Sequence record: OZ556245.1
Direction: 5' to 3' (one strand)
From: a phage
DNA: 64,000 nt
Numbering within the stretch: the stretch's first letter is position 1; each line of letters begins with the position of its first letter. The notes beneath the pieces are model-generated. The model was given only the letters and a program-made list of their open reading frames with translations. It searched no databases and was not told the origin of the DNA. This document shows positions 2,600-60,112 of this stretch, one piece after another. The position numbers were made by a program, and so were the translations under genes.

Positions 2600-2807
2600 C
2601 TTTAATACTTATAATTTCAATATCAGCCCAATGACCGTAACTTGGTAAACGGTCTTCAATAGATAATCCGCCATCATATTTAAGCATTTTAATTGTCATA
2701 ATATATGGCTCTAAATGGTCTTCAGTGAGCGGAGAGACATCAGTCACACGATAAGTAACTTCGACCATTTCCGTGCCCAGTAATTTCTTGATTAATTTCT
2801 TAAACAT
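2592..2807 (-). CDS. hypothetical protein
   Basis: 71-aa ORF in co-directional minus-strand array. Confidence 0.45.
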   Translation of the reverse strand: MFKKLIKKLLGTEMVEVTYRVTDVSPLTEDHLEPYIMTIKMLKYDGGLSIEDRLPSYGHWADIEIISIKDV

Positions 2808-2811
2808 TTTA

Positions 2812-3099
2812 TTAGAACCTCATCTGAAAACCGTGCGATTTAACATTACCGCCGCCAATATCAGAAATGTTAATTTCACGCGCAATTGAAGGGTCAATGT
2901 CAATTTCACGATTGAGTTTAGTGATAGCTAAAGTATCGCGGCCATTTACAGTACGGAACTCTAAAGGGCAGACTACATTAACATAGTTTTTAATCGATTC
3001 ACTGGTAAGTTGCAAATGAGCAGGAAGGTCTTTAGGCGCCTTAGAGAAAACCACTTCACAGAAATTTTTGCGGGTGTCAAAATAAGTAGTCATAAACAT
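2812..3099 (-). CDS. hypothetical protein
   Basis: 95-aa ORF in minus-strand array. Confidence 0.5.
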   Translation of the reverse strand: MFMTTYFDTRKNFCEVVFSKAPKDLPAHLQLTSESIKNYVNVVCPLEFRTVNGRDTLAITKLNREIDIDPSIAREINISDIGGGNVKSHGFQMRF

Positions 3100-3140
3100 A
3101 GTATTTTCCTCAGTAAGGGGCCGAAGCCCCTCATTTTATT

Positions 3141-3506
3141 TTAAATATCAAATTCGTTAAGAACTACATCAAAGATTGCTTCAAGATGCTCAGGGTTAGC
3201 TCTGTTACTCAGAATATGACGAATCCAAGTTTTAACCAGAAGCTTGCGATTAACACCATTCCAGCAAGGATGAGTCCCTAAATCGCGTTGACGAAAATCA
3301 TCATCCAAAGCGATTTTGAAGTTGGAACCTTCCATTGTGATTGAAACCGTGATGCCATTTTCAAATCGCATATAAACGTAGTTAGGAGTCATATACTGTT
3401 CAATTTCGCATACTGATCCATTTTGATGTTTCCAAAGGTAAATAGTATCAATAGAACCTGCAATACCATTAGAAACATATTTACGTTCAAAGTTGATGTA
3501 GTTCAT
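3141..3506 (-). CDS. hypothetical protein
   Basis: 121-aa ORF in minus-strand array. Confidence 0.5.
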   Translation of the reverse strand: MNYINFERKYVSNGIAGSIDTIYLWKHQNGSVCEIEQYMTPNYVYMRFENGITVSITMEGSNFKIALDDDFRQRDLGTHPCWNGVNRKLLVKTWIRHILSNRANPEHLEAIFDVVLNEFDI

Positions 3507-3574
3507 TTTTATTCTCCGAGATGTTTAATTGCAGTACAGGTATATAATATCATATCCTGTACCAAAGTAAACAA

Positions 3575-3907
3575 TTATTTTACTACTTTCCAGTGCTGCA
3601 TGTCAAGTTTACCAACTTTTTTCATCTTCTCAATTAAGCGTTCGGCGCGTTGGCGAGCTGTAACATAATACCATTCACCCAATTCATTTTGTTCAATTTT
3701 TCCAACGATTACTGTATTCAATTCATAAATCCAACCAGTAAAGAAATTATGAACTTGAATTGTAAAGGTGAAATCTGTTCCCATACCTTCTGTTGTTTCT
3801 ACTTCAATAATATCACCTTCAACTGCCATTAAGAACCACATAGTTTCATCATATTTACCATTGAAGCATTTAGTTTTAACTGCAGCGTTCAGATTAATCG
3901 TTTTCAT
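3575..3907 (-). CDS. hypothetical protein
   Basis: 110-aa ORF in minus-strand array. Confidence 0.5.
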   Translation of the reverse strand: MKTINLNAAVKTKCFNGKYDETMWFLMAVEGDIIEVETTEGMGTDFTFTIQVHNFFTGWIYELNTVIVGKIEQNELGEWYYVTARQRAERLIEKMKKVGKLDMQHWKVVK

Positions 3908-3984
3908 TTTATTCTCCTTTGTTTGTGTAAGATAATACTATCACAAAGGAACCATACTGTAAACAACTTTGTGCAGTCTTTGGA

Positions 3985-6565: not shown

Positions 6566-6798
6566 AGTACGCCATACACCCTTTGTGCTTCAACTAATCC
6601 ATCAAAATCCAATTTGAGATGTGTTATTTGGTCACCATCACCTGGATTCACAATTACTAATACTGAACGAGGAGTTTCGGTAATAACGCGAACCGATGTT
6701 TCTGGAAATCGTTCAGAAACCTTATTTACCAATTCCTGAGCAAATAGTTTAACTTTTTCTTGGAATTCTTTAACAGTAATTGGTTTTTCACTTAGCAT
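6562..6798 (-). CDS. hypothetical protein
   Basis: 78-aa ORF. Confidence 0.5.
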   Translation of the reverse strand: MLSEKPITVKEFQEKVKLFAQELVNKVSERFPETSVRVITETPRSVLVIVNPGDGDQITHLKLDFDGLVEAQRVYGVL

Positions 6799-7322
6799 GT
6801 TGATCCCAGCTCCTTACTTTCAACGTTTTTAACTAATTTGACAGAAACTAATTCAGCATCTTGAGTAATCATTACCGGGCCTTCTTCATACTCTTCAAGA
6901 TATTCTAGAGCTTTCTTTTTAGCTTCTTCCTTCGTATCAGTTTGAGCATAGATATAAAACATGCAACCACCAGTAATACCTACTACTTTCCACTTAATTT
7001 CTTTATCAGTTTTAATTTCAAATTTACTGACAGAATCATCTTTTTGAACTTCTTCGAAAAAAGAATATTCTAACATATAAGCAATTGAAAATAACGGGCT
7101 AACTTTATAAGATTCGCCCATTACATCAACAGCTTTATACCAGCGGTCATCAATTTCGCGTTTAATGCTAATAACATTTTTCGCAGGATCTATTTTTACT
7201 TTAAATGAATTTTCCCCAATAAACTGGGCAATTCGTTTATTAGCACCACAGGTTTCATTAAAAATATTTTTATATCCAGCTTTAAAGCGATAAACCTTAT
7301 CTTCTTCAAACCATTCGCTCAT
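6792..7322 (-). CDS. hypothetical protein
   Basis: 176-aa ORF. Confidence 0.5.
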   Translation of the reverse strand: MSEWFEEDKVYRFKAGYKNIFNETCGANKRIAQFIGENSFKVKIDPAKNVISIKREIDDRWYKAVDVMGESYKVSPLFSIAYMLEYSFFEEVQKDDSVSKFEIKTDKEIKWKVVGITGGCMFYIYAQTDTKEEAKKKALEYLEEYEEGPVMITQDAELVSVKLVKNVESKELGSTC

Positions 7323-7863: not shown

Positions 7864-9278
<1,415 letters not shown>

Positions 9279-9281
9279 TTA

Positions 9282-9512
9282 TTATTTCTCAACCAATGAT
9301 TGAATATAATCATGCAGGTCTTTGGATGCTTTACCCCACTTATTTTGGTATTCATTTTTAAGATTAGCACGTGATTGAGCTAATAAAACATCATTAGTTG
9401 GAGGTAAAGATTCTAACCGCTGAATCTGGCGTCCGTAAATCATTGCAGCCATCTCGGATTCATAAATCAATCCTTTGAGATGTTCAAATTGATGCCATGA
9501 AATCATTTGCAT
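9282..9512 (-). CDS. hypothetical protein
   Basis: 76-aa ORF. Confidence 0.45.
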   Translation of the reverse strand: MQMISWHQFEHLKGLIYESEMAAMIYGRQIQRLESLPPTNDVLLAQSRANLKNEYQNKWGKASKDLHDYIQSLVEK

Positions 9513-9802
9513 TTATCCTCTTTTAACTCTTGGCGATAATAACATATCATAGTTTTCTGATCATGTACATATCGTTTTACATCATTAAGCCAAATACGAA
9601 ATTCCTGGGAATCTTCGAATGGCATACCGACCCAAGCTTTACCATCAATAACTTTAACTTGCCAAGATAGTTTAGCTTCATCGTATGACTTTATTTGTAC
9701 AGGCCAATTAGGATGAACTGTTTCTTTCTTTACTTCTAGAGGCTTTGTCGAACAACCAACTAGAATACCAATAGATAATATTACTGCTGATAGTTTAATC
9801 AT
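9503..9802 (-). CDS. outer-membrane spanin-like lipoprotein (o-spanin)
   Basis: 99-aa ORF with lipoprotein signal and lipobox (ILVGCS); directly downstream of a putative i-spanin. Confidence 0.55.
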   Translation of the reverse strand: MIKLSAVILSIGILVGCSTKPLEVKKETVHPNWPVQIKSYDEAKLSWQVKVIDGKAWVGMPFEDSQEFRIWLNDVKRYVHDQKTMICYYRQELKEDKCK

Positions 9803-10152
9803 TTAGAAAGGTCCTGGATGTCTTCTGCGAACTTGTTGAAGGAGTTGTTGATTTGTTTTTCAACCAATCCTGGCTTATGAGCCACCACATCCGCCTTCTT
9901 TGCGTCTTTGCGCAGTTTTTCATTTTCACGCTCAATAGCAGCAATTGCCTCACGATTTTTATTATTCATCGCATCAATATAATTATACTGAATTCGCAAA
10001 TTATTTAATGCTAAAGCGTTTTCATTGGCCGTTTTTGTAATTTCTACAACAGACGTTTCTAATCTTTCAATTTTATTTTTTAAAATTAAAGAAGTTCCGC
10101 CCAATGCAATTACAATTAATAACAAGCCTGTTGTCGTATTACTTAATTGCAT
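9799..10152 (-). CDS. inner-membrane spanin-like protein (i-spanin)
   Basis: 117-aa ORF with N-terminal TM helix followed by a charged, coiled-coil-like region. Confidence 0.55.
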   Translation of the reverse strand: MQLSNTTTGLLLIVIALGGTSLILKNKIERLETSVVEITKTANENALALNNLRIQYNYIDAMNNKNREAIAAIERENEKLRKDAKKADVVAHKPGLVEKQINNSFNKFAEDIQDLSK

Positions 10153-10646
10153 AAAGTTTTAATAACCTCTACAATATCGTCTTGAGAAAGACCGTTAATT
10201 AAAATATGATGTTCAGCTGGAGATTTAGAAATTTTAAAGCATGCCTCAACATCTTCTGCCATATCTGATGCGCTACGATTTGGATTACTAATTCCAAGAC
10301 GATGTTTTCCCGTTAAAGGATTAACGATGATATAGCATTTACAGTTGTTAATATGAACATTAGGTTGAGTCTGATTAATGAACACATCACAATCATATTT
10401 CGCAAGCTGATTTTCTAAAAAGACTTTCATCTCCTCAACCGCATCAGGAAGCATATCACGGGCTTGCTCAAGACGACGATTTCGATATTCTTTAATGGTC
10501 GTTTTCCGCTTGACTTGCTTAGCTAAATCTTTCTTAAGATCGGTGATATATCCAACTCGACGATTTCCTTTAAATACAGAAATCCCATCTGTAGTATCAC
10601 CGTATGCTTCAACGACCATCTCAGTAGTAATAAGCTGCAAATCCAT
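10143..10646 (-). CDS. alc: Alc host-transcription unfolding/termination protein
   Basis: 167-aa ORF; length and synteny (between pseT block and rnlA) as in T4. Confidence 0.75.
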   Translation of the reverse strand: MDLQLITTEMVVEAYGDTTDGISVFKGNRRVGYITDLKKDLAKQVKRKTTIKEYRNRRLEQARDMLPDAVEEMKVFLENQLAKYDCDVFINQTQPNVHINNCKCYIIVNPLTGKHRLGISNPNRSASDMAEDVEACFKISKSPAEHHILINGLSQDDIVEVIKTLCN

Positions 10647-10710
10647 TATAAAGTCCTCATGTTATGTCAGTAAGACTACTGTAACACAACACGAGGGACT
10701 TGTAAACAGC

Positions 10711-12298
<1,588 letters not shown>

Positions 12299-12325
12299 AA
12301 TAAAATGGGCCTTGCGGCCCACTCC

Positions 12326-13504
12326 TTAAAAATATTTTTTAAAACTCATCATAACTTTATCATCAACATCATTATCAATCTGTGCTACAAGGTAAGATGA
12401 AAGTTCTACTTCTTGTGGCGCGGATTGAACATTATCAGAATTAAGGTATTCACGAATCCAAGGATACGGATGTTTAACCGGAGCATCAGTAATTGGGCAT
12501 GGAAGACCACACTGTTTCATACGAGATACAGTTAAGTAATCAATAAAGTTCCACATGCTATTTGTATTTAATCCAGGAACATCGCCATCTTTAAATAAAT
12601 GAACTGCCCAGTCTTTTTCTTGACGGTTAACTTCCATGAAAATATCAACTGCTTCTTGTTCACACTCTTGGGCGATTTTAACCCATTCATCACCATCAGT
12701 GCCAAGTTGAAGTTGACGAATAATATATTGGGTGCCTTTAAGGTGAAGCTGCTCATCACGTGCAATGAACTTCATAATCTTGGCATTACCTTCCATGATT
12801 TCCATGTTCTTATGGAAGTTAAAGGTACATGCGAAAGATACATAAAAACGAATAGCTTCCAATGCGTTGATTACATGCAGACAAAGGTAAAGAGAACGCA
12901 TTAGTTCGTATTTGCATTCTTCTACATGCATAAGGCTATTTGAATATGCGTCCAAATCATATTCATTCTCTGAAAAACACCTAAAAATTTCTTTTGCGTT
13001 TTCCCATTCACGAGTTTTCTCAATAACATCATCATAATAACGACCAATAGATTCAGCACGTTTCATGATAGCTTTATCTAATACAATCTCATCAAATACC
13101 TTTGACGGATCAGTATAAAGATTTCGCATGATATGAGTATATGAACGACTGTGAATAGTTTCGCTAAAAGTCCATGTAGCAACCCATGTATCAAGGCTTG
13201 GATCTGAAATTAATGACATAAGTACAGCAGACGGTGCACGACCCTGAATGCTATCCAAAAGTGATTGATACTTCAGGTTATTAGTAAAAATATCTTGCTG
13301 ATACTGGGGAAGCTTGTTAAATTGTGCAGCATCCATCATCAAGTTTACTTCTTCAGGACGCCAGAAAAATGACAACTGCTTTTCGGTTAAATCTTCAAAA
13401 ACTTTATGACGTTGAATATCATAACGCGCAATACCAAGACCTGAACCGAAGAACATAGGTTCTTTTAAAACATCAACTGGATTTGTATTAAAAACTGTGC
13501 TCAT
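12326..13504 (-). CDS. nrdB: ribonucleotide reductase small subunit, uninterrupted
   Basis: 392-aa continuous ORF with class I RNR R2 features; no intron. Confidence 0.93.
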   Translation of the reverse strand: MSTVFNTNPVDVLKEPMFFGSGLGIARYDIQRHKVFEDLTEKQLSFFWRPEEVNLMMDAAQFNKLPQYQQDIFTNNLKYQSLLDSIQGRAPSAVLMSLISDPSLDTWVATWTFSETIHSRSYTHIMRNLYTDPSKVFDEIVLDKAIMKRAESIGRYYDDVIEKTREWENAKEIFRCFSENEYDLDAYSNSLMHVEECKYELMRSLYLCLHVINALEAIRFYVSFACTFNFHKNMEIMEGNAKIMKFIARDEQLHLKGTQYIIRQLQLGTDGDEWVKIAQECEQEAVDIFMEVNRQEKDWAVHLFKDGDVPGLNTNSMWNFIDYLTVSRMKQCGLPCPITDAPVKHPYPWIREYLNSDNVQSAPQEVELSSYLVAQIDNDVDDKVMMSFKKYF

Positions 13505-13555
13505 AAATTTTCCGCTTAGTTAATAGATAGTGACTCGTCCGTGAGTCAAATTATA

Positions 13556-15820
13556 TCATAATTTACAGGATGAACAATCTTCAGCTTTTGGAGTTTCTAT
13601 TTCATAATCATCAGTACCAGAACCGTCACGGGTATTATGATAATAGAAATTTTTTCCGCCAAAATACCAAAAATACAAAAGGTCATCAATCATTATTGAC
13701 ATTGGAACCTTTCCTTTTGGAAAAATCTGCGGGTCATAATATGTATTCGCTGAAGCTGATTGACACACCCATTTCAGCATAATAGCTACTTGCGTAAGAT
13801 AAGGTTTATTGCCTTTCTTAGCTAATTTCCATGTATAATCATAGAGGTCTATGTTGTGCTCAATATTGGGCACGACTTGATTAAAGGAGCCCTCTTTTGA
13901 TTCTTTAACAGAGACTGGTCCACGTGGAGGCTCGATACCGTTTGTACTGTTAGAAACTTGGGAAGATGACTCACATGGCATAAGTGCTGATAATGTGCTA
14001 TTACGGATGCCAAAGAGCTTAAGGTCTTCCCGCAGCGACGACCAGTCACAAACGTATTTTGGAGCTGCGATTTGGTCAATCTTTTTATTGTACCAGTCGA
14101 TAGGTAATTCGCCTCGAGACCAACGAGTGTCTGAATAATATTCGCAAGGTCCTTTTTCTTTGGCGAGCTTAATGGATGCTTTAATGAGTCCATACTGTAG
14201 TCTCTCAAATAGTTCATGTGTTAAATCGTTAGCATCTTCATAAGAAGCAAAATTACTTGCCAGCCAAGCTGCATAGTTAGTAACACCTACGCCAAGGTTT
14301 CGACGTTTTTTAGCTTTTTCTGCTTCAGGAACTGGATATCCTTGGTAATCCAAAAGATTATCAAGAGCACGAACTTGGACTTCTGCCAATTCATTAATTT
14401 TATCTTGGTCTTGCCAATCGAAGTTATCTAACACAAATGCAGATAACGTACACAATCCAATTTCAGCATCAGGACTATTCACATCATTTGTTGGAATAGC
14501 AATTTCACAACACAAGTTGCTCTGACGAATAGGTGCCTTTTCACGAATAAACGGAGTATAGTTATTCGTATTATCAATGAACTGTACATAAATCCTTGCT
14601 GTTCCTGAGCGTTCAGTCATGAGCAATTCAAACAGTTCACGGGCTTTAATACGCTTTTTACGAATATTAGGGTCTTTTTCTGCAGCTTCGTATAATTCAC
14701 GGAAACGGTCTTGGTCTTTAAAATAAGAATAGTAAAGTTCGCCACCCATTTCATGCGGACTGAACAAAGTAATGTAATCATTCTTTCCAAATCGTTCCAT
14801 CATCAAATCATTCAGCTGGACGCCATAATCCATATGACGAATGCGGTTTTCTTCTACACCTTTGTTATTTTTCAAAACGAGAAGATTTTCAACTTCCAAA
14901 TGCCAAATAGGATAATAAGCAGTAGCAGCGCCGCCACGAATTCCACCCTGTGAGCATGATTTAACAGCAGTCTGAAAATGTTTCCAAAAAGGAATAACAC
15001 CAGTATGGCGTACTTCACCTGTGCCAATCTTAGAACCTTCGGCACGAATCATACCAACGTTAATACCAATTCCAGCGCGTTTGGAGATATATTCAACAAT
15101 TGAAGCAGAAGCCTTATTGATAGACTTTAATGAATCACCTGCTTCAATAACAACGCATGAACTAAACTGCCGAGTTGGAGTACGGCAACCAGCCATAATA
15201 GGAGTTGGCAGTGAAATCTGTCGAGTAGATACTGCTTCATAAAAACGAATAACATGTTTTAATCTATCAACAGGTTCATCTTGATGCAATGCCATTCCAA
15301 TAGTCATAAATGCAAACTGTGGAGTTTCATAAATTTGACCAGTGGTTTTATCTTTAACTAGATATTTTTCTTTTAATTGCATCGCCCCGGAATAAGTAAA
15401 TTCCATATCCCGCTCGTGCTTAATTTTTGATTCTAAAAATGTAATTTCTTCTGCAGAATATTTTGATAACAGTTCAGGGTCATATTTACCTTCATTTACA
15501 CAGTAAGAAATATGGTCAATAAATGAACGTGGTTCATACTGCCCGTAGACATGCTTACGAAGAGCGAACATTAAACAGCGTGCAGCTACATATTGATAAT
15601 CAGGCTCTTCAACTGAAATAGAATTCGCAGCAGCCTTAATGACAATAGTCTGAATGTCATCAGTTGTCATTCCATCACGGAGATATGATTTAATATTTTC
15701 ATATAATTCATAAGGATCTACAGATGTTCCTTCAGCTGCCCAAGATAAAACTTTAATAATTTTTTGCGGGTCAAAGCTCTGAGAAACACCACTACTTTTG
15801 ATAACATTAATTAATTGCAT
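13556..15820 (-). CDS. nrdA: ribonucleotide reductase large subunit
   Basis: 754-aa ORF, class I RNR R1 (CEI/NLCCE-type active-site region, C-terminal CxxC tail). Confidence 0.95.
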   Translation of the reverse strand: MQLINVIKSSGVSQSFDPQKIIKVLSWAAEGTSVDPYELYENIKSYLRDGMTTDDIQTIVIKAAANSISVEEPDYQYVAARCLMFALRKHVYGQYEPRSFIDHISYCVNEGKYDPELLSKYSAEEITFLESKIKHERDMEFTYSGAMQLKEKYLVKDKTTGQIYETPQFAFMTIGMALHQDEPVDRLKHVIRFYEAVSTRQISLPTPIMAGCRTPTRQFSSCVVIEAGDSLKSINKASASIVEYISKRAGIGINVGMIRAEGSKIGTGEVRHTGVIPFWKHFQTAVKSCSQGGIRGGAATAYYPIWHLEVENLLVLKNNKGVEENRIRHMDYGVQLNDLMMERFGKNDYITLFSPHEMGGELYYSYFKDQDRFRELYEAAEKDPNIRKKRIKARELFELLMTERSGTARIYVQFIDNTNNYTPFIREKAPIRQSNLCCEIAIPTNDVNSPDAEIGLCTLSAFVLDNFDWQDQDKINELAEVQVRALDNLLDYQGYPVPEAEKAKKRRNLGVGVTNYAAWLASNFASYEDANDLTHELFERLQYGLIKASIKLAKEKGPCEYYSDTRWSRGELPIDWYNKKIDQIAAPKYVCDWSSLREDLKLFGIRNSTLSALMPCESSSQVSNSTNGIEPPRGPVSVKESKEGSFNQVVPNIEHNIDLYDYTWKLAKKGNKPYLTQVAIMLKWVCQSASANTYYDPQIFPKGKVPMSIMIDDLLYFWYFGGKNFYYHNTRDGSGTDDYEIETPKAEDCSSCKL

Positions 15821-16137
15821 AAGTCCTCAACTTGAAAATCGTCTTTAAACAATCGGTTAACTATATGAGCTATTATATCACCATGACACGGCTTTGGTTT
15901 ACATGTGCATCCTAGCCTCATTCCACGTAAAGGCTCTAAATGTGCTTTAGTTATTTCTCCGGATTTAATTCGACGTATAAAATCTTTTTTGAATAATTCA
16001 ATGGCAGCCTCCCGGCTGCCAGCATCTTTACCGACGTAATTTCCCCAAAATGTACCACGGTGAATATTAACATCAAAGTCGGATTTATATTTATTCACTA
16101 CCTGGCATAGACGGCCCGCGCGGTGATAATTCGTCAT
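15811..16137 (-). CDS. hypothetical protein (nrdA.1 position), Cys/His-containing
   Basis: 108-aa ORF with [12 protein letters not shown] motif. Confidence 0.5.
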
Positions 16138-16366
16138 ATTGTTTTTCCGTTAAAACAGTAATATCATAATAACAGTCAGAAGAAGTTTTAACTGTGGAAA
16201 TTTTATTATCAAAATACTCACGAGTCATTTTATGAGTATAATATTTTTTGCCATAAATGATAATAGGCTGATTTGGTCCTGGAACTTCTAACTCGCTTGG
16301 ATTAGGAAGTGTAAAAAGAACTACACCAGAAGTATCCTTAAATCGTAAAATCATATATCCTCTCAA
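16091..16366 (-). CDS. hypothetical protein (nrdA.2 position)
   Basis: 91-aa ORF. Confidence 0.5.
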
Positions 16367-16377
16367 TTAAATTAAAA

Positions 16378-17237
16378 TTACACCGCCATCTTTCCTTTAA
16401 TTGGCGGGTGAGATACATAGTTGTTAAGAACAAAATTATGCGGCTTTGCGAATTGACTCAACCAAAATACCTGCGATTCTGTGTCCCATTCATCAAATTC
16501 ATCTGGAAATTTTAATTGTAATTCGCATAAATCCATAGGTTCACGACGCAAAATTTCTTTACATTGTTCTACGTGATTCATATAGATATGAGTATTACCA
16601 CCAGAAAATATCAAATCTCCTGGAATAAGATTACACATCTTAGCTACAATATGAACTAACGTAGCATATGATGCAATATTAAATGGAAGACCGAGGAAAA
16701 CATCTACCGAACGTTGATACCACTGCAAATCCAAATAGCCATTACGCACATTAAATTGATAGAACATATGACAAGGTGGTAATGCCATTTGCTTGAGTTC
16801 AGCTGGATTCCATGCTGAAACAATTTGACGTCTATCATTTGGCAGTTTTTTAATACGATCAACAACTTCTATAATTTGGTCTACACCACCAAAATCACGC
16901 CACTGTTTTCCATAAATTGGACCAAGTTCACCACTATGGTATCCTAAATCTTTTGCTTGATTTTCGTAATTTTCATCCCAGACTGTTTTGCCTTGAATTA
17001 ATGAATCATGTTGAATTAATCGCAAATCATTGACATTTGTGCTTCCCGATAAAAACCATATTAGCTCAGCAATGCAAGCTTTCCAGGCAAGCTTCTTAGT
17101 CGTTACTGCAGGAAAACCTTTAGTTAAATCCCAGCGTAATTTAGTACCGAACAAAGCAATTGTTCCTGTGCCTGTTCGGTCATCGGTTTCATAACCGTTT
17201 TCCAGGATATCTTTAATTAAAAATTGGTATTGTTTCA

Positions 17238-17238
<1 letters not shown>
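16378..17238 (-). CDS. td: thymidylate synthase, uninterrupted
   Basis: 286 aa from MKQYQ; ThyA motifs (PPCH, sequence around the catalytic Cys); track ORF starts 4 codons upstream at a TTG. Confidence 0.93.
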
Positions 17239-18263
<1,025 letters not shown>

Positions 18264-18279
<16 letters not shown>

Positions 18280-18623
18280 TGAAAAGGGCCAGGAACATAT
18301 CCGCTAGAGTTAACCATTTTAACTAAAGTTACCATTCCTCTGTTAACTGCTTGCGCGATTTCATCAAAAACTTCGTCACTATCATCGTAAAGGTCATTAA
18401 AAAGTTCTAATACGTTCTTCTGAACTTTTAATTTACGGCCGACAATTTCGCCTACAGTAAATTCGTTTCCGCCAAATCCAGCGTAAAATGTAATTACACC
18501 CATTAACTGGCTTTCACGGGAATCTATGTCGTGTGATAAATTAATAAAAGCCGTCCCAGGCGCGGTTTTAAGTTGGCAACGAATTTTTACTTGGGTAATT
18601 CCAGTTATATGAATGTTAGACAT
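18264..18623 (-). CDS. hypothetical protein (frd.2 position)
   Basis: 119-aa ORF. Confidence 0.5.
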
Positions 18624-18633
18624 AATATTTTTC

Positions 18634-18876
18634 TCAAACAGACTTTTTCACAATTTTCCAATCAGCTTTAAACTGATCAACATCAGAATGATAAATCCAG
18701 AATCCTGCGCTTTCTCCATCCTCATAAAGAGAGCATCCATCACATTCATCTTCCCATCCCATATCACGCAAAAGACGTTCAGCTTTTTCAACAAGTTCAG
18801 AATCTTTACCGATGATATTAAAATACCATTTACCTCTAACTTCTGAATCTTTAATGCTCTGACGTTGTAATCTCAT
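18634..18876 (-). CDS. hypothetical protein (frd.3 position)
   Basis: 80-aa ORF. Confidence 0.5.
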   Translation of the reverse strand: MRLQRQSIKDSEVRGKWYFNIIGKDSELVEKAERLLRDMGWEDECDGCSLYEDGESAGFWIYHSDVDQFKADWKIVKKSV

Positions 18877-20723: not shown

Positions 20724-20800
20724 TTTTATTTCCTTTTTAATTTAATTAACAGTTGGTGCTATGACGATGTATGACCTCATAGCTGGTCAGTGAGATAATT
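20724..20800 (-). promoter_or_regulatory. gene 32 mRNA leader: candidate translational operator (structured element plus A/U-rich tract)
   Basis: Leader ...GAGGUCAUACAUCGUCAUAGCACCAACUGUUAAUUAAAUUAAAAAGGAAAUAAAAAUG with overlapping complementary segments. Confidence 0.5.
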
Positions 20801-20806
20801 ATAATC

Positions 20807-20814
20807 TATTTATA
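20807..20814 (-). promoter_or_regulatory. late-promoter-like TATAAATA upstream of gene 32
   Basis: Reverse complement of tatttata ~85 nt upstream of gene 32 ATG. Confidence 0.4.
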
Positions 20815-20822
20815 ATAAGCAA

Positions 20823-28803: not shown

Positions 28804-31788
28804 ATGGCTACTTTAAAACAAATACAATTTAAAAGAAGCAAAACCGCAGGTCAACTTCCTGCTGCTTCAGTATTAGCCGAAGGTGAATTGGCTATTAATT
28901 TAAAAGATAAAACAATTTTCACAAAAGATGACTCAGGCAATGTTATAGAATTAGGTTTAAAATATGGAGGAACAATTGATGGTTCTTTAACTGTTAATGG
29001 AAATATAATTGGAAATTTAACAGGTAACGCTGCAACTGCAACGAAATTAAAAACAGCACGAAAAATTAATGGTATATCCTTTGATGGGTCAAAAGATATC
29101 ACGCTAACTCCATCCGACATAAATGTCAATAGCACAACGTTTATAAAAAATAACGGCGAATTACCTGTTGATGCTAATTTAGATACGTATGGGCCTGTTG
29201 AAGAATATCTTGGAGTTTGGTCGAAAGCAACTTCAACCAACGCTCAACCAGCAAATAAATTTCCAGAAGACAATGCTGTAGGTGTGCTAGAAGTATTTGT
29301 GGCCGGTCAATTTGCTGGTACTCAGAGATATACAACTAGATACGGAAATGTTTATATTCGTTCCTTGACTGCTACATGGAACGGAGTAAATGGTCCGTGG
29401 AGTGTGTGGCGAAATATTCAATCCGGTACTCGTCCACTGTCAACAACAATTGATCTTAATGATCTAGGAGGCGCTGAACACCTTGGTTTGTGGCGAAATA
29501 GTTCAAATTCCATTGCTACATTTGACAGAAATTTCCCAGAAGAGGGGTCGTCAGCTCAAGGTCTTTTGGAAGTATATGAAGGTGGAAACTATTCTCGTAC
29601 ACAAAGATATACAACCAGATTTGGTGTTGTTTATACTCGTTGTCTTGCTGCCGCGTGGGATTCTACTGCGCCTAAATGGGGACCGTGGCAGCAAGTCGGT
29701 AATGTCACACCAGCGACTTTTTATGATGGAGATCTGAATGATTTTAAAACTCCTGGGTTATATAATATTTTAGGCACTGATGCCGTTATTAATTGTCCTA
29801 CAGGCGAAGGTTTACCAGCCGTTATTGTTGGTTTGCTGGAAGTTAAACAGCGTGCTTCTGGTGGTGCTATTTTCCAAAAATTTACTACTGCCGGAACAGG
29901 TGCAACTACCCGCGATCGTATTTTTGAGCGCGCATATACCGGCGGTGTGTGGGGTGAATGGAACGAAGTATACACATCTTATTCTCTACCAATTACTTTG
30001 GGTATGGGCGGTATTAAATCTAACTTAGCAGAGTTAGACTGGCAAACATTTGATTTTGTTCCTGGTAGTATGTTTAGCGTTCCTTTGAACAAAATAAAGA
30101 ACATGCCAGCTAATATGGATTGGGGTACGATTGACAGAAACTTAATTATGTTTTCTGTTGGTCCTAGCGAGCACACCAGCACAGGACGTACTGTTCAGGT
30201 TTGGCGTGGTACTGTATCCCAGACAAACTACCGTTATTTTGTCGTTCGTGTATTCGGTAATTCAGGAAATAGAACTTGCACAGTTCGTCGCGTTGTTCTT
30301 GAAGATGGTCGCCACAAATGGACAGCGCAACAAGATTTTAATGGCGCAGTTAACTTCGGTGCTCCTACCAATTTTAACTCTACTGTTAACCTTAATAACA
30401 CTACCACTTTTAAAACAGAAGTTAAATTTCGCTCATTGAATGCATTCCGTATGTATGGCGGAAAATTTGGTACAATTTTCCGTAATGATGGAGAGAGTCT
30501 TTATATTCTTTCCACCGACGAAGATGACCAAGATGGAAACTTTAATACAAATAGACCTTTCCGTTATGAATTGAGAACTGGTGATGTTACTTTAGGTGGT
30601 ACTAGTGGTGCTAACGTTTTAAAATTAAAACGTGATTCTCTCACCGCATTTTTTGGCGGTGATATTAACACGAAAGGCTTGCTGACTTTTGACGCCGGAC
30701 GTTTAGGATCACGAGATTATTTTAAATTTAACCATTGGGGTGATAGTAATAATGCGCGTGATAACATTATTCAGTTAGAAGACAGCAAAGGCGCTCATTT
30801 TTCCACTGAACGTACTTTAGCGACTGGTGCAATTAAGACTAAATTTTTTGGTGAAATTGAATCCGATGGTAAATTGGTTATTAAACGTCCGGGTGATTCT
30901 ATTGTATTATCAACAACTGCTAGTAATTCTTTGCATATTCGTGGTGACATAGACGGGACTGGTAACTGGTATATTGGTAAGGGTGGTGCTGATAATGGAT
31001 TAGCGTTATATAGTTATGCTACTAATGCTGGTGTATACATTACAAACGCAGGAGATATCACGCTAAGTCCAAAAGGCGTCGAAATGGCCCATGTCAATAA
31101 CGTTCGATTATATGTTCATGGTGAACGTTGGACTGCTAGTCAACCAGGTGATTGGAGTAGTCAGTGGCAAGTGGAAGCGCCAATATTCGTCGATCATGGT
31201 TATGTTTCACAGGATTGTTATTATCCAATTATTAAAGGAAGAAGTGTAATCACCAATCAAGGGTTTGTAACTGCCGTCGATCTTGGTATTCGTCGTGTCA
31301 ATAACAATTGGGGACAAGCAATTATTCGTGTTGGATCTGCGGAGGCATCGCCAGCGGCTGGACACCCTAACGCGGTATTTGAATTTCATTACGACGGTAC
31401 TTTCTATTCTCCTGGTAATGGTAACTTTAACGATGTGTATATTCGTTCCGATGGTCGTCTTAAGATTAATAAAAAAGAGCTAGAAAACGGAGCGATTGAA
31501 AAAGTTTGCCGACTGAAAGTTTATACTTACGATAAAGTTAAGTCTATTAAAGACCGTAGTGTTATTAAACATGAAGTTGGTATTATTGCGCAGGATCTTG
31601 AAAAGGAATTGCCGGAAGCTGTATCTAAAGTTGAAGTTGATGGATCTGATGTTCTGACAATTTCTAACTCTGCTGTGAATGCTCTTTTAATTAAGGCCAT
31701 TCAGGAAATGAGCGAAGAAATTAAAGAATTGAAAACACCTTTCTTCACTAAAATTGCTCGCAAAATTAGTAATTATTTTAAATTCTAA
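28804..31788 (+). CDS. 37: gp37 long tail fibre distal subunit with C-terminal self-cleaving chaperone-like domain
   Basis: 994-aa ORF starting [13 protein letters not shown]; C-terminal ~110 aa carries SDGRLK motif. Confidence 0.9.
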
Positions 31789-31820
31789 CAACAGGGGGCT
31801 TTGCCCCTTTGGAGAAAATT

Positions 31821-32603
31821 ATGGCAGTAGTTGGTGTTCCCGGTTGGATTGGTAGTTCATCCGTAAATGAAACAGGACAACGATGGATGAGTCAAGCGGC
31901 TGGTCAATTAAGATTGGGCATTCCTTGCTGGATGAGCCAATTTGCAGGTCGCTCAAGAGAAATTATTCACACGCTTGGAGCAGACCATAACTTCAATGGT
32001 CAATGGTTCCGAGATAGATGTTTTGAGGCAGGTAGTGCACCTATAGTGTTTAATATCACTGGAGATTTAGTATCATATTCTAAAGATGTTCCTTTATTCT
32101 TTATGTACGGAGATACACCGAATGAATATGTTCAGTTGAACATACATGGTGTAACGATGTATGGCCGTGGCGGGAATGGCGGTAGCAATAGTCCTGGCTC
32201 AGCTGGGGGTCATTGTATTCAAAATGATATTGGTGGGAGACTAAGAATTAATAATGGCGGAGCTATTGCTGGCGGCGGTGGCGGCGGTGGCGGCGGGTAT
32301 TATTCTCCTTTTTCACAAATGAGATTGACCTTTGGCGGTGGCGGCGGTCGTCCGTTTGGCGCACCGGGCGGATCTATTAATATGCAATCAGGAGCAACTG
32401 CTGGTACTATTTCTGCGCCAGGCGCAGGGTCTGTGAACGGTATCTACAACGGCGGGTCTGGTGGTGAAGTTGGCTCCGCAGGAGGTAGATGTAATATTCG
32501 TGGTCAAGGATATGAATACGATGGCGGAGCTGCTGGTTATGCCGTCATAGGGTCTACACCGACATGGCAAAACGTTGGAGCAATATATGGTCCAAGAGTA
32601 TAA
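31821..32603 (+). CDS. 38: gp38 tail fibre tip adhesin (T2-type, glycine-rich)
   Basis: ~260 aa from ATG at 31821 (GGAG 7 nt upstream); [14 protein letters not shown]-terminus; several poly-Gly motifs separating short variable segments. Confidence 0.85.
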
Positions 32604-32635
32604 TTTTTGAATAAATACCCTTAAAAGGAGGGTCT

Positions 32636-44570: not shown

Positions 44571-46388
44571 CTATTGGCTCATCCATTCTTTACGAAGGTC
44601 AGCATTATCTCCCATGAGCATTTCAAAAAGCTCTTTCCAGTTCTCAGGAAGTTTAACAACATCATATACTGGGTTTTGAATCATCTCACGGTATTCAGAT
44701 TTTTCCAAAGAGCCAAGTCCCTTAATATAACGGATGCTATGTTTAGGTAGAGCATCTTTGGCACTCTCATATTCAGCGACTGTATAAAACCATTCTTGTT
44801 TTTTACCGACCTGAGCGATGATTACAGGAGTTTTGACGAAGCGAATTCTTCCTTGTTCAAACAGTTCTGGCCAATTACTAAAAAATCCGAGCAGAGAAGG
44901 ATAAATGCTTCCTAGACCATCATGGTCGGCATCGGTCATAATTGCAATATTATGATAATTCAAGTTTTCAGCCTTTTCACCAAGAACTAATCCAGTGATT
45001 GCGCAAATATCAAACAGTTCTTTGTTTTTAAGCATATCAGCATATGACATACCCCAGCTGTTAAGAACTTTACCGCGTAATGGATAACCACCATGAAGTT
45101 CTTTATCACGAACATCAATAAGATATCCGATAGCCGAATCACCCTCAGTCAAGAAAAGAGTAGTGTCAGCATCTTTACCACAAAGATTCGCTTTAATATG
45201 TTTATGAACCTTAGCTTTAGAAGCCTTTTTAGCTGCTTTAGTTTCTGCTGCCTTTTCTGCAGCCAATTTACGAGCCAAAGCAGCTTCAATAATTGGCATT
45301 AAAATTGCTTCATTGTTTAAAATAGCGCGTGAAATCTTTTTAGCATCAAGCTGAATATGACTACGAATTTCACCAAATGGAGAAGTCAAACGCTCTTTAG
45401 TTTGAGAATCAAATCGCATGTTTTTCATATCACGAACAAACATGACGATAGTCAAACATTCTTTAACACGTGCTTTAGTTACATCAATTTTGAACTTGCG
45501 TTTGATTTGTGGAATAAGGTCTTCACAAATATCATCCATAACACAGTCAATGTGATGACCACCATTCTTAGTATGAATGTTATTAACGTATGTTAATTGA
45601 CGAAAACCATCCGGTGAACGACCAACCGCAATAGAACAATTTTCTTGTTCTTGAACAATAGCATGCTCATCATATTGGCGTGCGTATTTCTTAAAATTAC
45701 CCTGAACCTTTTTACCATTAAAGGTAAATTGAATATCAGGATAAACTACTGCAAGTGTCTGGAGACGATCTAGTGTAATGTCAAGATAAACTTGAGATAG
45801 CTCATTAGTTTCAAATGACATAAAATCAGGAATGAAAGTAACACGTGTTCCTTTCCATTTTCCAGGAATATCTTCCCATGATTTATTTTCCATGCCATTT
45901 GAACAACGAACTACAATATTATTTTGACCGTCGCCAGTTTCACCGATAAACATCACAGAAAAAATGTTAGTTAAACTAGAACCAACACCGTTCATACCGC
46001 CAGTGACGCGTTCTTTGTCATCACCAAAGTTACCACCTGCTTTTGGAATAGTCCAGGCAGCAACAGGACCAGGAATTTCTTCACCAGTAGGTGTTTTAAC
46101 CATCGCTTGTGGAATACCACGACCGTTATCTTCAACTGTTACTTGATTGTTTTTGATAGTAACATTAATTTTATTCGCGAATTTAAACTTAGTACGAATA
46201 CCTTCATCTACCGAGTTATCGATAATTTCATCAATAAGCTTAACAAGACCAGGTACATACTGAACACTTTCCCATTTACCAAACAGAAAGCGCTCATGCA
46301 TTTCATTAGCGGAAGAGCCAATGTACATGCCGCTACGCTTTTTGATATGTTCAATATCGCTCAGAATTTTAATTTCATTCTTAATCAT
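44571..46388 (-). CDS. 39: topoisomerase II large (ATPase) subunit, single uninterrupted ORF
   Basis: ~605 aa from MIKNEIKILSDIEHIKKRSGMYIGS; GyrB-like ATPase and TOPRIM regions in one frame. Confidence 0.9.
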   Translation of the reverse strand: MIKNEIKILSDIEHIKKRSGMYIGSSANEMHERFLFGKWESVQYVPGLVKLIDEIIDNSVDEGIRTKFKFANKINVTIKNNQVTVEDNGRGIPQAMVKTPTGEEIPGPVAAWTIPKAGGNFGDDKERVTGGMNGVGSSLTNIFSVMFIGETGDGQNNIVVRCSNGMENKSWEDIPGKWKGTRVTFIPDFMSFETNELSQVYLDITLDRLQTLAVVYPDIQFTFNGKKVQGNFKKYARQYDEHAIVQEQENCSIAVGRSPDGFRQLTYVNNIHTKNGGHHIDCVMDDICEDLIPQIKRKFKIDVTKARVKECLTIVMFVRDMKNMRFDSQTKERLTSPFGEIRSHIQLDAKKISRAILNNEAILMPIIEAALARKLAAEKAAETKAAKKASKAKVHKHIKANLCGKDADTTLFLTEGDSAIGYLIDVRDKELHGGYPLRGKVLNSWGMSYADMLKNKELFDICAITGLVLGEKAENLNYHNIAIMTDADHDGLGSIYPSLLGFFSNWPELFEQGRIRFVKTPVIIAQVGKKQEWFYTVAEYESAKDALPKHSIRYIKGLGSLEKSEYREMIQNPVYDVVKLPENWKELFEMLMGDNADLRKEWMSQ

Positions 46389-46457
46389 CACTTATCCTCG
46401 TTTGGTTTCGGGAATATTATACTCCGGTAATCATAAAGCTAAAGGCCCGAAGGCCTT

Positions 46458-46727
46458 TTATTTAAAACGGATAGTCGAATCCTTGAAGAATAGACCAGAA
46501 CACACGGTTCCTTCTACTTTCTGCCCAGTAGGTCCAATAGCACGAAATCCAGTATGTTGAAAATCATTTTCAGAGCAACCGAACCAGTTGTATCCAGTGA
46601 TTTCAATATTAGTAAAACCACTTGAAGACAAAACTTTGGTTGCATTATCAGCATCAGTACATCCTGCTAAAGACACTGCTAATACTAATGCTGCGATAGA
46701 ACGATTAATATATTTCATAGTTTTCAC
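46458..46727 (-). CDS. small lipoprotein
   Basis: 89-aa ORF with signal peptide and lipobox (LAGCT). Confidence 0.5.
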   Translation of the reverse strand: MKTMKYINRSIAALVLAVSLAGCTDADNATKVLSSSGFTNIEITGYNWFGCSENDFQHTGFRAIGPTGQKVEGTVCSGLFFKDSTIRFK

Positions 46728-47101
46728 TTAAATTTAATGGCTTGAAGGAGACTAATAATTCTCAAGCGACTTCTTTCATCTTTAACTGTAAATGAAAGAG
46801 GGTCACCAGATTTCATAGTGATAGTGCATTCAAAATCAAAACCTTCGGGGACTTCTTCGAATAGGTCAAATTCTTCATCATATATTAGAACATTACTCTG
46901 AAAACTGTGAAGAATTTTTCCATCATTTCCAGATGCTGTACTAATCATTGTAACATTATGGCCTTTCATATCTTCAACGATAAATTCGCTTGTAGATATT
47001 ACGGCATTAATAGAACCATTCCTATAAATAGAAGAAAGTAGATATTTCTTTTCTTCACCTTCGCGAACACGATATTTCTTACCGATTTTAAACATAATCA
47101 C
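46724..47101 (-). CDS. hypothetical protein
   Basis: 125-aa ORF. Confidence 0.5.
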   Translation of the reverse strand: MIMFKIGKKYRVREGEEKKYLLSSIYRNGSINAVISTSEFIVEDMKGHNVTMISTASGNDGKILHSFQSNVLIYDEEFDLFEEVPEGFDFECTITMKSGDPLSFTVKDERSRLRIISLLQAIKFK

Positions 47102-57365: not shown

Positions 57366-57575
57366 TTAAATTACATGACTATTTATAATAAATTCTTGCG
57401 GAACGTTAAAATACCCAATTTTAGTTAATATAACAACATCACCGTTAATAATTACCGGAGAATAATCGGCTGGAGCATTAAACTTCCAATGAGCTCTAAT
57501 ATTATATCCATCAGAACCAAATGCTCGACTAGCCGGTTTCCCGGCTTTTTGCCATGCATAAAAATCAAATTTCAT
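57366..57575 (-). CDS. hypothetical protein
   Basis: 69-aa ORF. Confidence 0.5.
   Translation of the reverse strand: MKFDFYAWQKAGKPASRAFGSDGYNIRAHWKFNAPADYSPVIINGDVVILTKIGYFNVPQEFIINSHVI
57380..57387 (-). promoter_or_regulatory. late promoter (TATAAATA on minus strand) for soc
   Basis: Reverse complement of tatttata ~30 nt upstream of soc ATG. Confidence 0.65.
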
Positions 57576-57772
57576 TTTGAATGCTCTATAATTAATTTTA
57601 AGGCTTCTTCATGCACCTTACCTAATTGTATATGTCCAGTTTTAATTGTGTAAGCTTTGTGGAGCTGATTAGATAAGAGCTCACATACGAGCTCTTTGTC
57701 ATAATTTTTAAATAGCTGGTCAATACGTTTCTTGTGGGCTTTCTTAAGCTGGCGTTTATTTAAACGAGCCAT
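57572..57772 (-). CDS. hypothetical basic protein
   Basis: 66-aa ORF. Confidence 0.5.
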   Translation of the reverse strand: MARLNKRQLKKAHKKRIDQLFKNYDKELVCELLSNQLHKAYTIKTGHIQLGKVHEEALKLIIEHSK

Positions 57773-58290
57773 TAATAACCTCGGTCTTGACGAGCGAAGT
57801 TTTCAGCATTTTTCAGATAATAAAGTTTAAAGATTTCTTCAGCCGTAAGACCGAGACCTTGGAACATGTTCAGAACGAAATGAAGAATATCAATCATTTC
57901 GAATTTAATTTCCAACTGGTCTTGTGGAGACAAATCAGTAATCAGAGTTTCACGTCGTTCACCATGCTGAGCTTTCCAAGGCTTCCATACAGCAGATGCA
58001 TCTTTTTCACCATTGCTCATACCACCAAGAGAAGTCAATAGTTCGCGGAATTCATCATCAATATAATCTTTCTGATTACGCAGCCAATCAACAACTTCAC
58101 CCGCAGTAGCCAAATCATCAGGATGACGGTTATATTCAGGTTTATCTTTAGCTAAACGAACCTGCAGAGATTTCTGCATATCAAGCATAACCTGCAGCGG
58201 GTCTTTTTCATCACCGAGAATATCCCAGTATTCATTTTGAGCTTTATCAGCGCCTTCAATCAGTTGTGAACATTCATTAAAGTATGCCAT
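57772..58290 (-). CDS. 56: gp56 dCTPase/dUTPase (MazG-like)
   Basis: ~172 aa from MAYFNECSQLIEGADKAQNEYWDILGDEKDPLQVM; track ORF has a spurious 31-codon upstream extension. Confidence 0.9.
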   Translation of the reverse strand: MAYFNECSQLIEGADKAQNEYWDILGDEKDPLQVMLDMQKSLQVRLAKDKPEYNRHPDDLATAGEVVDWLRNQKDYIDDEFRELLTSLGGMSNGEKDASAVWKPWKAQHGERRETLITDLSPQDQLEIKFEMIDILHFVLNMFQGLGLTAEEIFKLYYLKNAENFARQDRGY

Positions 58291-58361
58291 TATTTTTCCT
58301 TTCAATTCATGGGTTAGTAGATTAATTATACAATAAATATATAAAGCAATAAGGAGGATAT

Positions 58362-58457
58362 ATGGTACAAAAATTAATGGCACTTGTCGATGCCATAAAA
58401 GGTAATAAAAAACGTATAGCTTTTACTATTTCTGTTATGATAGGAATTTTACTCTGA
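58362..58457 (+). CDS. small hydrophobic ORF (31 codons to an in-frame TGA; same frame continues 34 more codons to 58562)
   Basis: AAGGAGG at 58351-58357 then ATG 58362; MVQKLMALVDAIKGNKKRIAFTISVMIGILL-TGA-NFVLSPIAIAHGVNIPVITLDTFVDLAFALVGLI. Confidence 0.35.
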   Translation: MVQKLMALVDAIKGNKKRIAFTISVMIGILL

Positions 58458-58558: not shown

Positions 58559-59587
58559 TTAAATCTTAGCATATTTAGATAGCCGCATTTTAGCCATCAA
58601 CCCTTGGGCAATATTATTTTTCATATATTCCATAATTTGTTTAGGGGTTGCACCTTCCTTTCTAATCATATCATTAACATCTTTTGATTTCCAGGGAGAT
58701 TTGTCCCAAAACATAACCCTTTCTCCTGCATCAACTAATTTAGTCATTCGTTTAATAGTGTCAGGATGACGAGGTTCATTATCTAAAACCCATACACGTC
58801 TATCTTTAAATGGAACAATTTCTAGGTCTAATTGACCACCCGTAATAGCTATACCATTTTCAATAAAAAGTGAATCTATAGGTCCTTCTAGAACATATAC
58901 ATCACCATCTTTGACTCGTTCGACTCCATAGATTTTTGTTGCCTCAGGATAAGCTTTGATGGTGATATATTTTTGAGGAGCATCTTTCTTTAATGCACGT
59001 CCTTGAAAAGACTCGGCTTTTCCGTTAGCATTATAAATTGGAATAACAAGACGAGGCTCAGGTATTTCCTTTTTATATGTTCCTGGCGCTATGCTATTAA
59101 CTAATTTAGGCCATTCGGTTGTAAACCAAAGATATTTCCATTTATTCTTTGGAATACAACGAGCTTTTACATATTTTATAATTGGATGGTCTTCCGCCAG
59201 TTTATCTAATCTAATGCATGACGGAAGAGATTTAATTATTTTCTTCTCAGGTTGTTTAGGAAGTTCTTTAGGTTTTTCTACTGGACGACTTTTACCTTTT
59301 TCTTTTCTTATTTCAAAGATATACTCACGATATAAATCAGGTTCAAACTCCTTTAAATATATTCCGATTGGTGCATGATAGTTGCAGTTATAACAATGAA
59401 TATTTCCTTCATTATTATCACCATAATACCATCCACGGGCTTTATTTTGGTCGGTTTTTGAATCTCCACAAACAGGGCATCTAAACCGTAATTTAAAAGT
59501 TGAACTATTATTTACTTGTGTGAATTTAGGTAAATGAGCTAATGCACGGTATGCAAACTCATTATCAATCCAAGGTATTGATGACAT
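58559..59587 (-). CDS. 61: gp61 DNA primase
   Basis: 342-aa ORF with zinc-ribbon (CPVCGDSK...CYNC) and TOPRIM region. Confidence 0.93.
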   Translation of the reverse strand: MSSIPWIDNEFAYRALAHLPKFTQVNNSSTFKLRFRCPVCGDSKTDQNKARGWYYGDNNEGNIHCYNCNYHAPIGIYLKEFEPDLYREYIFEIRKEKGKSRPVEKPKELPKQPEKKIIKSLPSCIRLDKLAEDHPIIKYVKARCIPKNKWKYLWFTTEWPKLVNSIAPGTYKKEIPEPRLVIPIYNANGKAESFQGRALKKDAPQKYITIKAYPEATKIYGVERVKDGDVYVLEGPIDSLFIENGIAITGGQLDLEIVPFKDRRVWVLDNEPRHPDTIKRMTKLVDAGERVMFWDKSPWKSKDVNDMIRKEGATPKQIMEYMKNNIAQGLMAKMRLSKYAKI

Positions 59588-59755: not shown

Positions 59756-60112
59756 TTAACCTCTATTCATAAAAGCATTAAAAATTTGGTCATCAATCGA
59801 TGGAACAGCAACCTTTTCGGCATCATTTAGCAAATCATTAATTTCATCAGATAGCATAACGCATGTACCTTTATTTCCTGTAATTGTTACTGCACAATTA
59901 CGAACGTTTTCTTTATCAAATTTTAGGTTAATATTTTCGTAGTGAAAATCCTTTAATGCCGAATATATTTTTAAAATGAAATTGTCTTTTACTGCAATAA
60001 ACCCAACTTCACTATTAAAACGTGGTTCATGGAAACTGTAATAAACCTTTTCATCTATAAAATCGTATGAAATTTTTTCCATTTTTAAATATGAAAATTC
60101 AGAACTGTACAT
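59756..60112 (-). CDS. hypothetical protein
   Basis: 118-aa ORF. Confidence 0.5.
   Translation of the reverse strand: MYSSEFSYLKMEKISYDFIDEKVYYSFHEPRFNSEVGFIAVKDNFILKIYSALKDFHYENINLKFDKENVRNCAVTITGNKGTCVMLSDEINDLLNDAEKVAVPSIDDQIFNAFMNRG

Follow-up and report, generated by a model that had tools for sequence, protein, structure and literature searches.

A T2-type frd-td-nrdA-nrdB-denA cluster with empty T4 selfish-element positions in a Tequatrovirus genome stretch

Introduction

In bacteriophage T4 (NC_000866), the nucleotide-metabolism cluster at 137955-145112 carries a 1017-base-pair (bp) intron encoding I-TevI in td, a 598-bp intron with a defective I-TevIII in nrdB, and a 700-bp segment with nrdB.1 and the endonuclease gene mobE between nrdA and nrdB. 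The corresponding region of T2 (AP018813, 133784-138696) has neither introns nor mobE. Cleavage by the td intron endonuclease I-TevI requires a CNNNG motif. The cleavage positions of I-TevI lie 23 and 25 nucleotides (nt) upstream of the site where the intron is inserted, and T4, with 15 endonucleases, is an outlier among T-even genomes, most of which have few (PMC2988022). Wilson and Edgell located the nicks that depend on MobE at nt 122-126 of T2 nrdB, and found that crosses between T4 and T2 passed on mobE, as well as the defunct nrdB intron in trans, at high frequency (PMC2790892). Here, we describe the td-nrdA-nrdB region of a 64,000-nt stretch of phage DNA (OZ556245.1; hereafter the window), which represents 64 kb of a genome of about 167 kb. 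A first-pass annotation, made from the letters of this stretch, had proposed that td and nrdB are intronless, that the phage appears free of the homing elements that mark T4, and that it is a recipient rather than a donor in mixed infections. Our comparison with T2, T4 and several hundred related records indicates that the cluster is of T2 type, that the positions of the T4 selfish elements are empty, and that the T4 endonucleases would likely cut them.

Results

Anatomy of the td-nrdA-nrdB cluster

Both td and nrdB were found to be single uninterrupted open reading frames (ORFs) encoding full-length proteins (Table 1). The Td protein was identical to that of T4 at 256 of 286 residues, and NrdB matched T4 at 353 of 388 and T2 at 365 of 392. 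In the program-made ORF list td starts from a TTG (16378-17250); the ATG at 17238 gives a protein of 286 amino acids (aa) whose N-terminus, MKQYQ, is that of the T4 thymidylate synthase. Alignment with T4 using blastn revealed three clean absences. The T4 interval 143547-144563 (1017 bp; td intron and I-TevI) is missing exactly between window positions 16690 and 16689, and at about 12828/12829 the window lacks T4 138458-139057, the nrdB intron and its remnant of I-TevIII, an interval of 600 bp in the alignment and 598 bp net. The third interval, T4 139720-140419 (700 bp; nrdB.1 and mobE), is replaced by a spacer of 51 bp. The residues across both exon junctions were kept unchanged relative to T4, namely LGLPFNIASYA in Td and FYVSFACTFNF in NrdB, and the td junction reads ...TATCAACGTTCGGTAGATGTTTTCCTCGGT up to the insertion point and CTTCCATTTAATATTGCATCATATGCTACG beyond it. 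The codon counts given in the first-pass annotation (286 and 392) and its spacer of about 51 bp were therefore accurate, the latter to the base pair, and its statements on the T4 introns and on mobE agreed with both the T4 annotation and blastn; the alignment with T4 that it had proposed as a check confirmed the exon junctions.

Local alignment of the 51-bp spacer with the T4 nrdB.1-mobE segment yielded no meaningful remnant, and thus the 700 bp of T4 replace the spacer rather than being cleanly inserted into it. The spacer holds a hairpin with a 6-bp stem (13531-13548). A scan of 11800-18700 for promoters and terminators returned 27 promoter-like signals (28.5 expected) and 3 terminator-like signals (3.9 expected), that is, nothing above chance.

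Table 1. Features of the cluster and of the other T4 element loci in the window
Feature	Position	Strand	Description
denA (endonuclease II)	11888..12322	minus	only GIY-YIG ORF in the window; 3 bp downstream of nrdB
nrdB	12326-13504	minus	392 codons, uninterrupted; T2-type allele, T2 nrdB also 1179 bp
Empty nrdB group I intron site	12828..12829	minus	follows nrdB nt 676, which corresponds to T4 nt 664; blastn break
nrdB hypervariable cassette	12905..13024	minus	nrdB nt about 480-600; differs from T2 and T4; 4 aa longer than T4
MobE-site region	13341..13444	minus	nrdB nt 61-164, identical to T2
nrdA-nrdB spacer	13505..13555	minus	51 bp; T4 has nrdB.1 and mobE (700 bp) there
nrdA	13556..15820	minus	754 codons; 742/754 aa identical to T4, 749/754 to T2
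nrdA.1 homologue (DUF4326)	15811..16137	minus	T4 collinearity, Pfam
nrdA.2 homologue (DUF5496)	16091..16366	minus	T4 collinearity, Pfam
td (thymidylate synthase)	16378-17238	minus	286 codons, single uninterrupted ORF
td hypervariable cassette	16439..16518	minus	td nt about 720-800; unlike T2 and T4
Empty td intron insertion site	16689..16690	minus	after td nt 549; blastn break against T4; ...ttttcctcggt / cttccattt...
CAACG, I-TevI-type CNNNG cleavage motif	16712..16716	minus	-27 to -23 from the td insertion site
68-aa accessory ORF	17238..17444	minus	between frd and td; phrog_9550 (unknown function); no endonuclease signature
frd (dihydrofolate reductase)	17441..18022	minus	T4 collinearity
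Gene 32-gene 59 interval	20724..20822	minus	99 bp, no segG; T4 147919-148541 absent
Gene 39 (topoisomerase), uninterrupted	44571..46391	minus	one ORF, 605/606 aa; T4 2794-3910 absent
soc-gene 56 ORF pair	57366..57772	minus	57366-57575 and 57572-57772; 69 aa (DUF7422) and 66 aa; T4 has segF there

Comparison with T2, T4 and related phages

The layout of the window was that of T2, which shares an nrdB of 1179 bp, a 51-bp spacer (2 nt differ), an nrdA of 2265 bp, nrdA.1, nrdA.2 and a td of 861 bp. The alignment of window positions 9000-17239 with T2 formed a single block without gaps (94.9% identity); the 392-codon nrdB, 51-bp spacer and 286-codon td, all collinear with T2, identify the T2-type, element-free allele. 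Two short cassettes, one in nrdB (nt about 480-600) and one in td (nt about 720-800), diverge strongly from T2, and the junction of td and frd in T2 holds a 115-aa ORF unrelated to the 68-aa ORF of the window. With T4, the window shares genes, order and strand at 93-96% nucleotide identity over most of the cluster, and differs in the three additions of T4 and in its nrdB, which has 388 codons in T4.

Hundreds of Tequatrovirus (T4-like) genomes matched the 5.6-kb cluster, the top matches being Escherichia phages UGKSEcP2 (OV876900; 99.5%) and EPIMAM01 (PQ493298; 99.4%); EPIMAM01 was 97.8% identical to the window across 63 kb. These two phages and several hundred further Tequatrovirus records have the same intron-free layout. 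To count the empty states, we used short junction-spanning queries, which the rule for joining matches cannot bridge across an insert; the 562 records covering at least 80% of the cluster were not taken as an intron-free count, as the matching joins pieces up to 3.3 kb apart. The td junction was uninterrupted in 439 of 634 related records (69%) and the nrdB junction in 586 of 690 (85%), and the nrdA-nrdB spacer was short in 374 of 516 (72%). T4-type elements were also represented among the records (td intron, 197-260; nrdB intron, 118-191; complete nrdB.1 and mobE, 20). An absence is to be judged by its frequency in the population; since all three empty states are the majority among related phages, the layout of the window is real but unexceptional, and the intron-free td-nrdA-nrdB arrangement is a common and already described state of T-even phages. 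The first-pass annotation had set the phage against T4; this framed the contrast backwards, T4 being the outlier and the window sharing the layout of T2 and of 69-85% of the related records.

Search for introns

The gathering threshold of Rfam was discarded: it returned nothing for the window, but it missed the control introns of T4 as well. The gathering threshold of RF00028 (50 bits) lies above the scores of the T4 td and nrdB introns (40.3 and 35.7 bits, respectively), which are missed because the endonuclease ORF splits the core. Intron-free verdicts from default Rfam scans of phage genomes are therefore unreliable. In E-value mode, which we used instead, the control passed, with RF00028 matching the 3' halves of the T4 td (40.3 bits) and nrdB (35.7 bits) introns. 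Under these settings, no group I core was matched by RF00028 in 12000-18100 up to E = 10, nor in the whole window at E ≤ 0.1. Consistently, neither gene had an insertion interrupting its ORF relative to intronless homologues, td and nrdB being single ORFs collinear with T2 and with the spliced T4 proteins.

Search for homing endonucleases and the other T4 element loci

The T4 counterpart of the window extends from gene 30 to uvsX and takes in the nucleotide-metabolism cluster, the tail-fibre genes, rII and gene 39; apart from a restricted number of insertions and deletions, the two sequences are collinear (blastn against NC_000866). The six homing-element loci of T4 within this range (I-TevI, I-TevIII, mobE, segG, mobA and segF) fell in gaps present only in T4 and are empty in the window, whose collinear parts correspond to T4 genes other than homing endonucleases. 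Conversely, the window segments without a T4 counterpart were all intergenic and at most 523 bp long, apart from the divergent tail-fibre genes 36-38; thus, no gene is interrupted.

Thirteen T4 homing endonucleases, including the GIY-YIG queries I-TevI, I-TevII and SegA, B, C, F and G and those of the HNH group (MobA-E, I-TevIII), were compared by phmmer with all six-frame ORFs of at least 30 aa, and no match was obtained at E ≤ 1 besides DenA, which answered to a control query. Profile hidden Markov models of the Seg and Mob types gave best values of E = 0.59 and 0.63, respectively, among the window ORFs; with the Mob profile, a control ORF of EPIMAM01 scored 5e-33. Pfam searches of every ORF in the T4-less segments, ten of which were also searched against PHROGs, detected no nuclease family and no HNH domain. 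Together with the RF00028 result, these searches bear out the first-pass statement that the cluster holds no group I introns or homing-endonuclease ORFs.

The window does encode one GIY-YIG nuclease, DenA, which adjoins nrdB. It matched the Pfam GIY-YIG family (PF01541, E = 5.4e-6) and T4 DenA by phmmer (E = 1.3e-95), and its gene is collinear with T4 denA. DenA (EndoII) is encoded by a conserved T4 core gene with a syntenic position in both T4 and T2, and is neither a homing element nor a mobile insert. The search for GIY-YIG and HNH ORFs that the first-pass annotation had called for was accordingly negative for homing endonucleases within the window, but not for the GIY-YIG fold as such.

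Window-specific ORFs (176, 106, 68, 85, 119, 125, 179, 86, 118, 109, 75, 72, 71, 69 and 66 aa) were considered as disguised endonucleases and rejected. Pfam and PHROGs assigned them only to DUFs, to phrogs of unknown function, and to goF-like, MotB-like and AdfA-like families.

The remaining element loci had also been commented on in the first pass, which described gene 39 as uninterrupted and the 32-59 and soc-56 intervals as short. The first two descriptions held: T4 has gene 39, mobA, 60.1 and gene 60 with its bypass where the window has a single ORF, and the 32-59 interval is indeed short (Table 1). The third was wrong, as the soc-56 interval measures about 421 bp and contains two small ORFs.

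The same search applied to the whole genome of EPIMAM01 recovered one Mob-type HNH gene (219 aa; PQ493298, 73935-74594; E = 1.6e-25 against MobB), located between genes 3 and 2, beyond the range of the window. UGKSEcP2, the nearer of the two to the window in the 5.6-kb cluster, lacks an ORF at that locus. The nearest relatives thus vary in endonuclease content, and the content of the whole phage cannot be inferred from EPIMAM01 as a proxy. Freedom from homing elements, as first proposed, is borne out for the 64-kb window only.

Target sites of I-TevI and MobE

At the empty td site, an intronless exon junction is accompanied by a CNNNG motif (CAACG) 23-27 nt upstream of the insertion point, the arrangement of an I-TevI homing site. 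Downstream of the insertion point, the site is identical to T2 for 26 nt.

In nrdB, the MobE nick site mapped at nt 122-126 corresponds to window positions 13379-13383, and the surrounding sequence is identical to that of the susceptible T2 allele. The T4 allele itself shows 26 differences over nt 61-164, of which 8 are in nt 121-135. The 5' part of nrdB was only 82.8% identical to T4, because the window has the T2 sequence there and the T4 allele is the divergent one.

Hypervariable cassettes in nrdB and td

Each cassette has sharp boundaries within a gene that is otherwise 92-99% conserved. Within the nrdB cassette, 57 of 120 nt differ from T2, in comparison with 0-5 differences per 60 nt elsewhere. 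In the core bin of the td cassette, T2 and T4 share one sequence, from which the window departs at 43 of 60 nt. The nrdB cassette is situated 75-195 nt upstream of the nrdB intron site, and the td cassette 170-250 nt downstream of the td intron site.

Neighbouring genes and other features of the window

The early genes of the td-nrd region are all on the minus strand and form a tight cluster in the order frd, 68-aa ORF, td, nrdA.2, nrdA.1, nrdA, nrdB and denA. The 68-aa ORF encodes a basic product, and its stop and start codons overlap those of its neighbours at both ends. It is absent from T4, where frd and td overlap directly, and was found in 147 of 495 related records (about 30%). The interval between frd and frd.1 (18022-18623, minus strand) contains two further ORFs that T4 lacks, of 85 aa (phrog_3183) and 119 aa (DUF7247, phrog_3566).

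Several differences from T4 were observed elsewhere in the window. The dam gene (T4 16826-17724) has no counterpart: only 20 bp align (window 58331-58350), in a gap between gene 56 (57772-58290) and gene 61 (58559-59587), and a phmmer query with T4 Dam gave no homologue at E ≤ 1, either in the window or across the complete genome of EPIMAM01. A hydrophobic ORF of 31 aa lies on the opposite strand in this gap (58362-58457). In place of T4 61.2, the window has a 118-aa ORF (59756-60112, minus strand) that matches only the C-terminal half of the Pfam family AdfA (anti-DarT factor A; positions 113-211 of 211); this homologue of T4 61.2 (AdfA) is a shortened or recombined version. Two ORFs not found in T4, of 176 aa between cd.2 and cd.3 (6792-7322, minus strand) and of 125 aa near 39.1/39.2 (46724-47101, minus strand), showed weak PHROG similarity to each other's families and to goF-like modulators of mRNA metabolism, and may be paralogous accessory genes. 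The distal tail-fibre region (28959-32610, plus strand; gene 37, 994 aa; gene 38, 264 aa) did not match T4 at the nucleotide level, as would fit a gp38 adhesin of the T2 type and not a T4-type gp38 chaperone.

Discussion

We consider it highly probable (about 0.93) that the window comes from a Tequatrovirus with a T2-type frd-td-nrdA-nrdB-denA cluster, in which the positions occupied by selfish elements in T4 are empty and likely open to cutting by the T4 endonucleases. Under this interpretation, td and nrdB would be expressed from ordinary unbroken ORFs, with no requirement for splicing. In a mixed infection with T4, I-TevI would cut td and MobE would nick the 5' part of nrdB of the window phage, cleavage being likely because the empty sites keep sequences that the T4 endonucleases cut. 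Repair from T4 DNA would then transfer the elements together with flanking T4 markers, as in the classical localized marker exclusion between T2 and T4. The prediction of a recipient made in the first pass is therefore reasonable from the sequence, given the T2-identical nt 61-164 of nrdB and the CAACG at -27 to -23 of the td site, although cleavage and homing themselves are what we infer.

Several points weigh against this interpretation. The td junction differs from T4 by 7 synonymous changes in the 57 nt compared, and, compared with T2, four positions of the td homing site upstream of the insertion point are altered. The likely susceptibility to I-TevI and MobE is judged from sequence alone. 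Among the searches, the seg-type GIY-YIG profile was run without an independent positive control, and, as the window covers 64 of about 167 kb, homing endonucleases may lie elsewhere in the genome.

The competing account that fares best, though it is unlikely, supposes that precise deletion removed the T4 introns and mobE from a lineage that once had them, for instance through recombination with an intronless relative or with a reverse-spliced or cDNA copy; the sites would then have been cleared and not spared from invasion. Precise deletion leaves no scar and would be compatible with the clean junctions, and the cluster is mosaic, the hypervariable cassettes of nrdB and td pointing to frequent recombination among relatives. 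However, the copies of the td intron are nearly uniform, identity reaching 99% or more in 172 of 260 records, in contrast to an exon divergence of 5-10%; recent horizontal spread into empty sites thus fits better than ancient presence with repeated loss. Moreover, the empty state is the majority state, and the 51-bp spacer is common to T2 with only 2 differences.

Alternatively, the sites might have diverged beyond the reach of T4-type endonucleases, which would make the phage immune rather than a recipient. The synonymous changes relative to T4 near the td insertion site and the 82.8% identity of the 5' part of nrdB to T4 point in this direction, but we regard such resistance as very improbable: in its 5' part, nrdB departs from T4 by carrying exactly the sequence of T2, the experimentally susceptible MobE substrate (PMC2790892), the divergent and protected allele being that of T4 itself. 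At the td site, the CNNNG motif is kept at the right distance and the T2 sequence downstream is retained. As for a cryptic or degenerate element, such as a short ORF-less intron or an endonuclease remnant in the 68-aa ORF or the spacer, its probability is close to nil: the 68-aa ORF is absent from T4, of unknown function and located at a junction where T2 has a different ORF of 115 aa, but neither of these two ORFs has a Pfam match at E ≤ 0.1 or resembles a T4 homing endonuclease, the spacer is too short for an intron core, RF00028 gives no signal although its control works, and td, nrdA and nrdB are full length and collinear with the T2 and T4 proteins.

The two cassettes lie in what we presume to be surface-loop regions of R2 and thymidylate synthase. 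They might be more than tolerant loops, namely hot spots of allele replacement arising from endonuclease-initiated co-conversion, or from selection to break homology and limit homing tracts, but we hold this to be quite doubtful. If true, an intron-free lineage would bear the footprints of past encounters with homing elements.

For annotation, td and nrdB should be entered as simple coding sequences. Beyond this, the finding has little bearing outside crosses or phage cocktails in which the window phage is mixed with T4-type phages. In such co-infections with T4, the expected behaviour of the phage is that of T2, namely marker exclusion localized to the surroundings of td, nrdB and genes 32, 56 and 39.

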